Source: Macrostomum lignano (taxonomy: Eukaryota). Taken from it: 18,858 nucleotides of DNA. How positions within the stretch are numbered: the first letter of the stretch is position 1; each line of letters starts with the position of its first letter. Where the stretch lies: assembly GCA_002269645.1 (NCBI GenBank), contig NIVC01005239.1, forward strand, positions 1 to 18,858, given 5' to 3'. The notes under the pieces were generated by a model, which worked only from the letters and a program-made list of their open reading frames with translations, had not been told where the DNA came from and searched no databases. Position numbers and translations under genes: made by a program. Shown here piece after piece: positions 1,336-1,914 of this stretch.

Positions 1336-1613
1336 CATAACCGGTGTCCTACTGTTATTCTGAGCATAGCAGCTCCGAAAACGTCATCCATAATCCTCCT
1401 AACCTATCCCCCAAAATCCATCTATATTATCAGAGCATAACAAGTGTCCTACATAATCCACTGACATCCACCCATAGCATGTTCGAAACAATAAGAAAAT
1501 AATCTGCATTCTTCTCTCCACATTCAATTTGCAAAGCGAAACCAGATCCTTAAGACTTTAAACCCTCAGCGCAGGGTCCTTACCCTTTGAAAAAATTAAA
1601 TTCTTAATAAAAA

Positions 1614-1856
1614 ATGTTTCCAGTTGTCTCTCCAGGTTCTTATTATACTCAGCCTAATCCATTGTACAAATCCAAATACCGATGCAAACTAGAATGCAGC
1701 GAGTACATGAGAAAATATTGGCCCGGCATTGATATCAATGTCCCTAATATTAATCTAGCTCTCCAAAGACACTGGTTTCATAAGTATGGAGTAACCTACG
1801 TAAAAGATTACGACAGCTACTATAACTTTGCTGAAGTTATAAGGCAGTTGAAGTAG
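1614..1856 (+). CDS. 80-aa protein of unknown function; inverted paralogue of 16436..16672
   Basis: Intact ORF with an A-rich start context. About 59/80 residues are identical to the right-arm copy by manual alignment (shared CKLECSEYMRKYWPGI and DSYYNFAEVIRQL). Confidence 0.8.
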   Translation: MFPVVSPGSYYTQPNPLYKSKYRCKLECSEYMRKYWPGIDINVPNINLALQRHWFHKYGVTYVKDYDSYYNFAEVIRQLK

Positions 1857-1914
1857 CCAACTATAAGGTTGTACCTCGTGGCTTATATCGTAATTTTACA
1901 AGTCTGAAGACGAC

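Follow-up and report, generated by a model that had tools for sequence, protein, structure and literature searches.

A selected gene in the terminal inverted repeats of a Maverick/Polinton family of Macrostomum lignano, carried in two variants by a contig that joins two insertions

The window analysed here, the entire contig C5239 (18,858 bp) of the 764-Mb Macrostomum lignano assembly, carries element genes, several of them in pieces, between two inverted copies of a short open reading frame that we call the TIR gene (Table 1). From the AG-rich ends of its terminal inverted repeats (TIRs), its TSDs (target-site duplications) of 6 bp and its predicted genes, namely a protein-primed DNA polymerase B (pPolB), an rve integrase, an A32 ATPase, an adenain and a double jelly-roll (DJR) capsid gene, we identify the element type as Maverick/Polinton. 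The polymerase match reached 34.5 bits against a Pfam cut-off of 25.8, and in a second element described below (element B) the integrase (PF00665, 35.6 bits against 32.6) and the capsid (PF21738) likewise exceeded their cut-offs; the PF04665 and PF00770 matches, which come from fragments, fell slightly below. A Pfam search of ORF 2040-2771, which adjoins the major capsid gene and in which a minor single jelly-roll capsid was looked for, gave no match.

Both copies of the TIR gene are open, and both are spanned by an inverted match (1579-1879 against 16410-16706; 307 columns, 83% identical, E 1e-87). The first-pass annotation had described this intact gene pair within an inner inverted repeat, with proteins ~74% identical and with differences clustered at residues 12-17 and 48-66. 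We counted 59 identical residues among the 78 aligned (76%) and found the differences at those places, plus single changes at residues 2, 6, 21, 23 and 40; the words that it had quoted upstream and downstream of the ORF are present in the sequence. An outer TIR (1162-1334 against 17318-17490, 91% identical) starts from AGTAG tips at 1162 and 17490 (tip sequence AGTAGA). An A-rich leader precedes the ATG of the TIR gene, as in other genes of the element, and the short tail behind the left copy belongs to one of several types of tail that either end can show. The host flank holds a 79-bp tandem repeat at 365-917.

Table 1. Features of the window, in window coordinates.
Feature	Position	Strand	Remarks
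TSD of element A, CAGCCG	1156..1161	+	twin follows A's right end on C3972
Left TIR of element A, from AGTAG tip to the gene's last shared sense codon	1162..1850	+	98.3% identical to A's right TIR
81-bp direct repeats in outer TIR	1209..1334, also 17274-17443	+	
TIR gene of A, 80 aa, modules TQP / QRH-HKY / TYVK	1614..1856	+	three helices predicted
Short common tail, 'CAACTA' type	1857..1879	+	carries the match beyond the stop codon
Double jelly-roll major capsid gene, broken	3164..4087	-	PF21738 E 1.4e-4; E 1e-8 in B
A32-type packaging ATPase, two pieces	5890..6688	+	PF04665 E 4e-4 for first piece; second piece without Pfam match, placed by position
Adenain-like cysteine protease	8195..8728	-	PF00770 E 3.6e-4
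Protein-primed DNA polymerase B, pieces; gene continues upstream	8837..10822	-	PF03175 E 1.4e-8 and 1.4e-5
Gene with adenovirus protein X / mu-like motif	12744..13196	-	PF05829 E 4.4e-7, above Pfam cut-off
Retroviral-type integrase, pieces, approximate limits	13450..14250	-	translation with X at stops; rve E 1.1e-8 in B
139-bp tandem repeats of A, last A-derived sequence	15387..15894	+	
A/B junction	15892..15894	.	3-bp microhomology
Right TIR of element B; longer; includes a 19-bp tandem array (16993-17201)	16413..17490	-	
TIR gene of B, 78 aa, modules KxHE / KSH-EKH / VIN	16436..16672	-	identical to B's own left copy
TSD of element B, GTGGTT	17491..17496	+	GTGGTC at B's left end on C1293

The window is composed of two insertions: the left 15.9 kb of one Maverick/Polinton insertion (element A) and the right end of another (element B). 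A sign of this chimera lies in the hexamers that flank the window's two ends, CAGCCG and GTGGTT, which match at only 1 of 6 positions and so form no common TSD, while the ends of A pair with each other at 6/6 and those of B at 5/6. On the left side, window 1-12750 differs from contig C4174 by 17 substitutions, none of them in the first 7 kb, and window 4827-15894 is 98.5% identical to contig C3972. When the genome was searched for a right end with the six bases of the left flank behind it, exactly one site came up, on C3972, where the right TIR of A aligns with the window's left TIR over 692 columns. The gene copy in this right TIR shares its type with the left copy of the window and, in the assembly, is disrupted close to its start. 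Over 11 kb, 79 substitutions separate C3972 from the window, more than separate C4174 from it, so that C3972 may represent a duplicate of insertion A, or an allele of it, and not the same molecule. On the right side, window 15892-18858 matches contig C4223 with 0 substitutions, and the same segment also matches contig C1293, on which element B carries identical genes at its two ends (0 substitutions), both of the window's 'right' type. The interior of B is only 94-99% identical to the window. We also observed that the 19-bp tandem array in B's TIR differs in copy number between B's two ends.

The junction between A and B lacks ~620 bp of B, occurs once in the assembly, and truncates a 274-aa ORF of element B after ~70 residues. 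We consider an assembly artefact and a real rearrangement about equally probable: the contig is small and other contigs cover each of its sides, which suggests the former, and the junction is near-collinear with microhomology, which suggests the latter. Among the contigs listed for four runs of other samples none bridged position 15892, and in three of the four the A-type continuation appeared there as a loose end; we count neither as evidence. The divergence of the window's gene pair is explained by the joining of two insertions, and the alternative offered in the first-pass annotation, in which each arm derives from a different element, is borne out by the contig matches and by the TSD pairing. 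Close to the junction, the truncated 274-aa ORF of B starts at 16103 on the minus strand, and the region upstream of it (window 16103-16270) has an array of nGAAn words at ~16239-16268, which we take to be heat-shock-like, as well as a TATA word near 16192.

Genome searches with the window's two proteins returned 614 and 619 first-look candidates (the best 150 from each search were scored) and put the number of candidate TIR gene copies at about 600. We examined 38 end pairs: those of the window, of A and of B, and those of 35 siblings selected by eye from the two top-150 lists. In 33 pairs both tips were found; the other five, lacking a detected terminus, were dropped. The TSDs agreed at 5/6 or better in 27 of the 33 pairs and at 6/6 in 25. 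The distance from tip to TIR gene end was 618-1050 bp, with a median of 699 bp (27 elements), in agreement with the earlier proposal that the gene had belonged to a ~700-bp TIR. In most pairs, the similarity between left and right ends stopped 235-260 nt past the ATG, at or just after the last sense codon, and the stop codon was provided by the unique tail: in 92 of 97 copies the frame closes no more than one codon from the TIR end, at TAA, TAG or TGA in differing tail sequences. The inner third of the family's TIR of ~700 bp is formed by the TIR gene, at whose last sense codon the repeat mostly ends. An N-terminal extension of the gene was ruled out, as upstream frames vary between copies, and so was a 3' splice, as the tails differ and provide stops.

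Several siblings depart from this layout. In C975, C2140, C276, C869 and C1584 the inverted repeat reaches from 1.1 kb to at least 1.5 kb beyond the gene's ATG, as if one end had overwritten the other. C827, C278, C1584 and C283 hold inverted gene pairs merely 2.5-9.4 kb apart and are probably internally deleted derivatives, and in C716 the hexamers outside the two ends are reverse complements, which points to an inverted duplication of one end, real or artefactual.

The gene varies in two interchangeable modules, A and B, and all four combinations of them occur (46, 22, 21 and 8). The inner neighbour sequence assigned 95 of the 97 copies to an end, and no association with the left or the right end emerged for any of four module characters (Fisher p 0.48-1.0); our two-query sampling enriches both types, which shifts their frequencies but should neither create nor hide an end bias. 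What the inner module (KSH) did follow was the type of the adjacent tail (21:8 vs 11:57, p 2e-7). Flanks seen on several contigs came with identical genes in 9 of 9 cases, and the variants thus belong to loci and not to assembly noise. The packaging ATPase divides into two types as well: of 150 matches to its N-terminal part (window 5890-6150), 65 were 98-100% identical and 84 were 89-90% identical, with a single match at 95%, which suggests two lineages recombining along the whole element.

The two ends of one insertion often disagree. Between the left and right gene copies of the 27 TSD-bearing pairs we counted at most 2 substitutions in 11 pairs, 3-12 in 6, and at least 18 in 10. Of the 27 insertions whose TSDs agree at 5/6 or 6/6, 13 had different modules at their two ends, a count from which element A was excluded, its module call being spoiled by an indel near the start of the right copy; with siblings chosen by eye from two top-150 lists, this unmatched share is not an unbiased estimate. 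The divergence between partner ends, relative to that between non-partners, rose from 0.20 at the tip to 0.65 in the gene's inner third (Wilcoxon p 0.012, n = 27), along a profile that is not monotonic (0.20, 0.39, 0.20, 0.35, 0.30, 0.43, 0.65), an unevenness due in part to varying repeat numbers in the outer TIR. The earlier suggestion that the inner part of the TIR had escaped homogenisation holds across the family, in which the inner end is the least homogenised part.

We infer that the gradient and the unmatched ends fit recombination between two lineages combined with TIR repair anchored at the tip. Two diverged lineages of the element would recombine, yielding a genome with unlike TIRs, whose ends could then pair as a panhandle during protein-primed strand-displacement replication, such that one end is copied onto the other. 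Copying would run from the tip inward over a variable length, so that the gene's 3' third would often stay with the neighbouring unique sequence and be integrated unmatched, and integration would freeze the resulting end pair. In adenovirus, panhandle pairing of the ends and their repair are known. The adenovirus inverted terminal repeat is described as the replication origin in PMC9863843, where, in the part of that text drawn on here, panhandles appear in a reference title only.

Two other accounts of the unlike copies have to be weighed against this repair during replication. In the first-pass annotation they were left and right paralogues, and one may picture a fixed pair, each end with its own selected gene in an inner TIR that has long gone unhomogenised. 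Such a pair would account for two open frames whose products are 76% identical and for the 10 elements with copies at least 18 substitutions apart, yet the module type proved independent of the end, B has the 'right' type twice with identical copies, A's two TIRs are nearly the same, and C2087 (TSD 6/6) shows the module combination of the window the other way round. Identical left and right copies in sibling elements, the arrangement that the annotation had set against its own proposal, appear within two substitutions in 11 of the 27 elements, and we find fixed paralogues scarcely credible. The other account moves the mismatch to a time after insertion: gene conversion from other chromosomal copies would create the unlike ends, and the gradient would mark where conversion tracts can start. 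The genome does offer hundreds of donor copies, and the TSD-perfect elements C110, C782 and C570 differ in patches in the outer TIR too. However, C1, C522, C714 and C1330 are identical in the first third of the gene and in 180 bp upstream of it, with differences in the inner part alone, and the inner module tracks the adjacent unique tail, as expected if it was inherited together with the interior. We judge later gene conversion somewhat unlikely, and retain tip-anchored repair before integration as the preferred reading.

Selection on the gene was evaluated in 97 copies (with a few duplicates of one insertion still among them), comprising 90 unique sequences. Open frames were found in 94 of the 97 copies, with a stop in two and a frameshift in one, and the length was 234 or 237 nt in 96 of 96 framed copies. 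The pairwise pN/pS of the unique sequences was 0.34 overall, but differed strongly along the gene, from 0.17 outside the modules to 0.46 in module B and 0.95 in module A; for the window's own pair it was 0.56, at few sites. Maximum-likelihood estimates of omega were 0.36-0.41, on trees violated by recombination. Singleton (private) variants gave 0.67-0.81 against 0.16-0.31 for common variants (Fisher p 0.012 and 0.008), a contrast that would be expected from selection during replication and then decay after insertion. Ser20 is kept by two kinds of codon, TCC in 53 cases and AGY in 34. Other reading frames had a pN/pS of 0.76-1.72, except for the mirror antisense frame, which had 0.26 but 8 stops on average; no other frame combined a low pN/pS with openness, the 88 of 88 open sense frames of the control having been preselected as open. 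Together, these substitution patterns indicate that the TIR gene is real, protein-coding and under purifying selection, as the first-pass annotation had proposed when it called for a dN/dS comparison. One of its arguments we reject, namely that open frames amid broken core genes are evidence of selection: between two contigs of one locus we found 1.1-5.6 frameshifting indels per kb, at which rate a 240-nt ORF stays untouched 26-77% of the time and a 3.5-kb gene at most 2%, so that a short ORF often escapes. We make no claim of positive selection at residue 38, where seven amino acids occur, as CpG decay could account for part of this variation.

The gene is an orphan, for which sequence searches found no homologue outside the M. 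lignano genome. A search by word index through 5.8 billion proteins (44-140 aa long) gave none, and a profile search of 1.84 billion representatives gave 3 matches at E ≤ 0.001, all rejected as tandem-repeat proteins with scores summed over repeats. Of 16 pattern matches in IMG/VR, 0 were confirmed, and in PHROGs one family matched at E 0.04, in 2 of 14 variants. The predicted models show three helices (~21-35, 46-58 and 67-78) and no strands, at a pLDDT of 60-61; with these low-confidence models, Foldseek gave 0 matches at E ≤ 0.001 in the PDB and BFVD, and the best Z values from VIA-align were 4.1 and 4.4, RNase T2 being absent from the 50 matches listed. The position and direction of the gene at both ends, by analogy with the TIR genes of other linear DNA viruses, point to an accessory factor, and the gene likely encodes a small accessory protein. 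More tentatively, and with somewhat less than even confidence, we propose that it may be made early from inward-facing TIR promoters at both ends, and that it may be non-enzymatic and bind a host or element partner via a conserved three-helix core, whose surface the two modules would alter. Four runs tentatively taken for RNA were set aside as a source on expression, since their contigs extend over non-coding parts as well.

What the region encodes could be doubted in two ways. It might be a conserved DNA signal at the TIR boundary in which the reading frame is incidental, as the ~70-nt central block, almost identical in DNA between the window's copies, and the sharp end of the TIR at a CARTTG word would allow. 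The third-position bias is nevertheless confined to the TIR gene frame, three different stop codons are used, and length variants are in-frame only, which together make a mere DNA signal highly improbable. The second doubt concerns function and is compatible with our best explanation: the gene might be a captured, catalytically dead RNase T2 fragment, from the helices around CAS II, acting as an RNA binder or decoy. The RNase T2 structure described in PMC4136927 has CAS I on strand beta2; CAS II is part of helix alphaC, one of the helices alphaB-D. The TIR protein would correspond to alphaB-D alone. Five of 14 variants matched PF00445 at E ≤ 1 (best E 0.0027), human RNase T2 (3t0o) was the sole PDB sequence match at E ≤ 10 (E 1), the top ESM clusters were RNase T2 (score 0.91, 158-172 shared features), the YWP...H..xKHG motif and the helix order of the models fit, and all 90 sequences have H53, which two different codons encode. 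A CAS II-like HWFEKHG word occurs in 22 of the 90. These matches are not independent, however, as all come from one ~30-residue stretch, and other window proteins drew unrelated-looking Pfam matches of equal strength. The score of 17.2 bits compares with a family cut-off of 26, hhalign against the host RNase T2, an exon of which is 100% identical to a protein labelled Macrostomum lignano, gave a probability of 1.4%, shuffle tests, chosen after the fact, gave 183, 66, 75 and 6 of 2000, and ESM recognition was low (1653), with 0.85 for the second query. The likeness to RNase T2, including the bracovirus enzyme treated in PMC4136927, is weak in that a 79-aa protein faces a 188-position model, with the motif and three successive helices in common. 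The TIR protein has no IHGLW-type CAS I: an HGLW-like word is absent from all 90 sequences, and ahead of the YWP stretch histidine appears at positions 14-15 alone, where it is variable. In 67 of the 90, Tyr takes the place of the second CAS II histidine. Nor are TIR gene copies among the genome's 7 matches to PF00445. The protein is not a member of the RNase T2 family, and we consider descent from a captured fragment unlikely. A fuller version, in which a dead RNase T2 fragment with two allelic modules forms the inner boundary of the TIR, unlike-ended elements express two variants, and the copies record tip-anchored repair, seems to us distinctly unlikely.

Our preferred reading, which we hold to be quite probable as a whole, is that the window is chimeric and that its two copies are variants of one selected TIR gene, likely for a small non-enzymatic accessory protein, which have likely been shuffled and partly evened by repair starting at the tip. 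It builds on direct observations: the chimera, the location in the TIR, the selection, the lack of end specificity, the occurrence of all module combinations, and the gradient from tip to inside.

Among known systems, the closest are the animal Mavericks/Polintons, also described as adintoviruses with a pfam03175 PolB (PMC8097293, PMC8502044), which resemble the M. lignano family in the range of TIR lengths, the 6-bp TSD and the AGTAG ends, as well as in pPolB, rve integrase, A32 ATPase, adenain and DJR capsid, as far as these are set out in the parts of those papers drawn on here. For vertebrate Mavericks, the corresponding part of PMC8097293 gives TIRs of 46-1,447 bp with perfect and imperfect repeats and 6-bp TSDs, and an exact (AGT)2 tip, in contrast to the AGTAGA of our family. 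Unlike them, the M. lignano family has a protein-coding gene as the inner third of the TIR, twice per element, with two interchangeable modules that are often unmatched between the ends of TSD-perfect insertions. Our literature search, over the texts as far as accessible, returned no description of such a Maverick TIR gene nor of Macrostomum Mavericks, although supplements may list TIR ORFs. Within the same scope, it returned no measurement of end matching in protein-primed integrating elements. Here, hundreds of TSD-bearing insertions with an allelic TIR gene mark the reach of such matching, and panhandle repair could be tested against later gene conversion in this family by computation alone. 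The family adds an orphan, selected, two-copy accessory gene to the animal Mavericks, in a laboratory model host.

Poxvirus inverted terminal repeats hold host-interaction genes in two copies. The poxviruses and entomopoxviruses, in what PMC11296320 says of their TIR accessory genes in the part drawn on here, are alike in having genes inside terminal repeats and TIRs that are hotspots of diversity. They are 100-kb-scale, hairpin-ended and non-integrating, whereas elements of the M. lignano family integrate, are protein-primed and measure ~16 kb, with a single orphan gene of 79 aa, of which hundreds of integrated copies record the variants. If the link to RNase T2 were true, a host-type gene fragment would have been repurposed at a viral end; and if unlike ends do express two variants at once, these elements would offer a viral analogue of heterozygosity.
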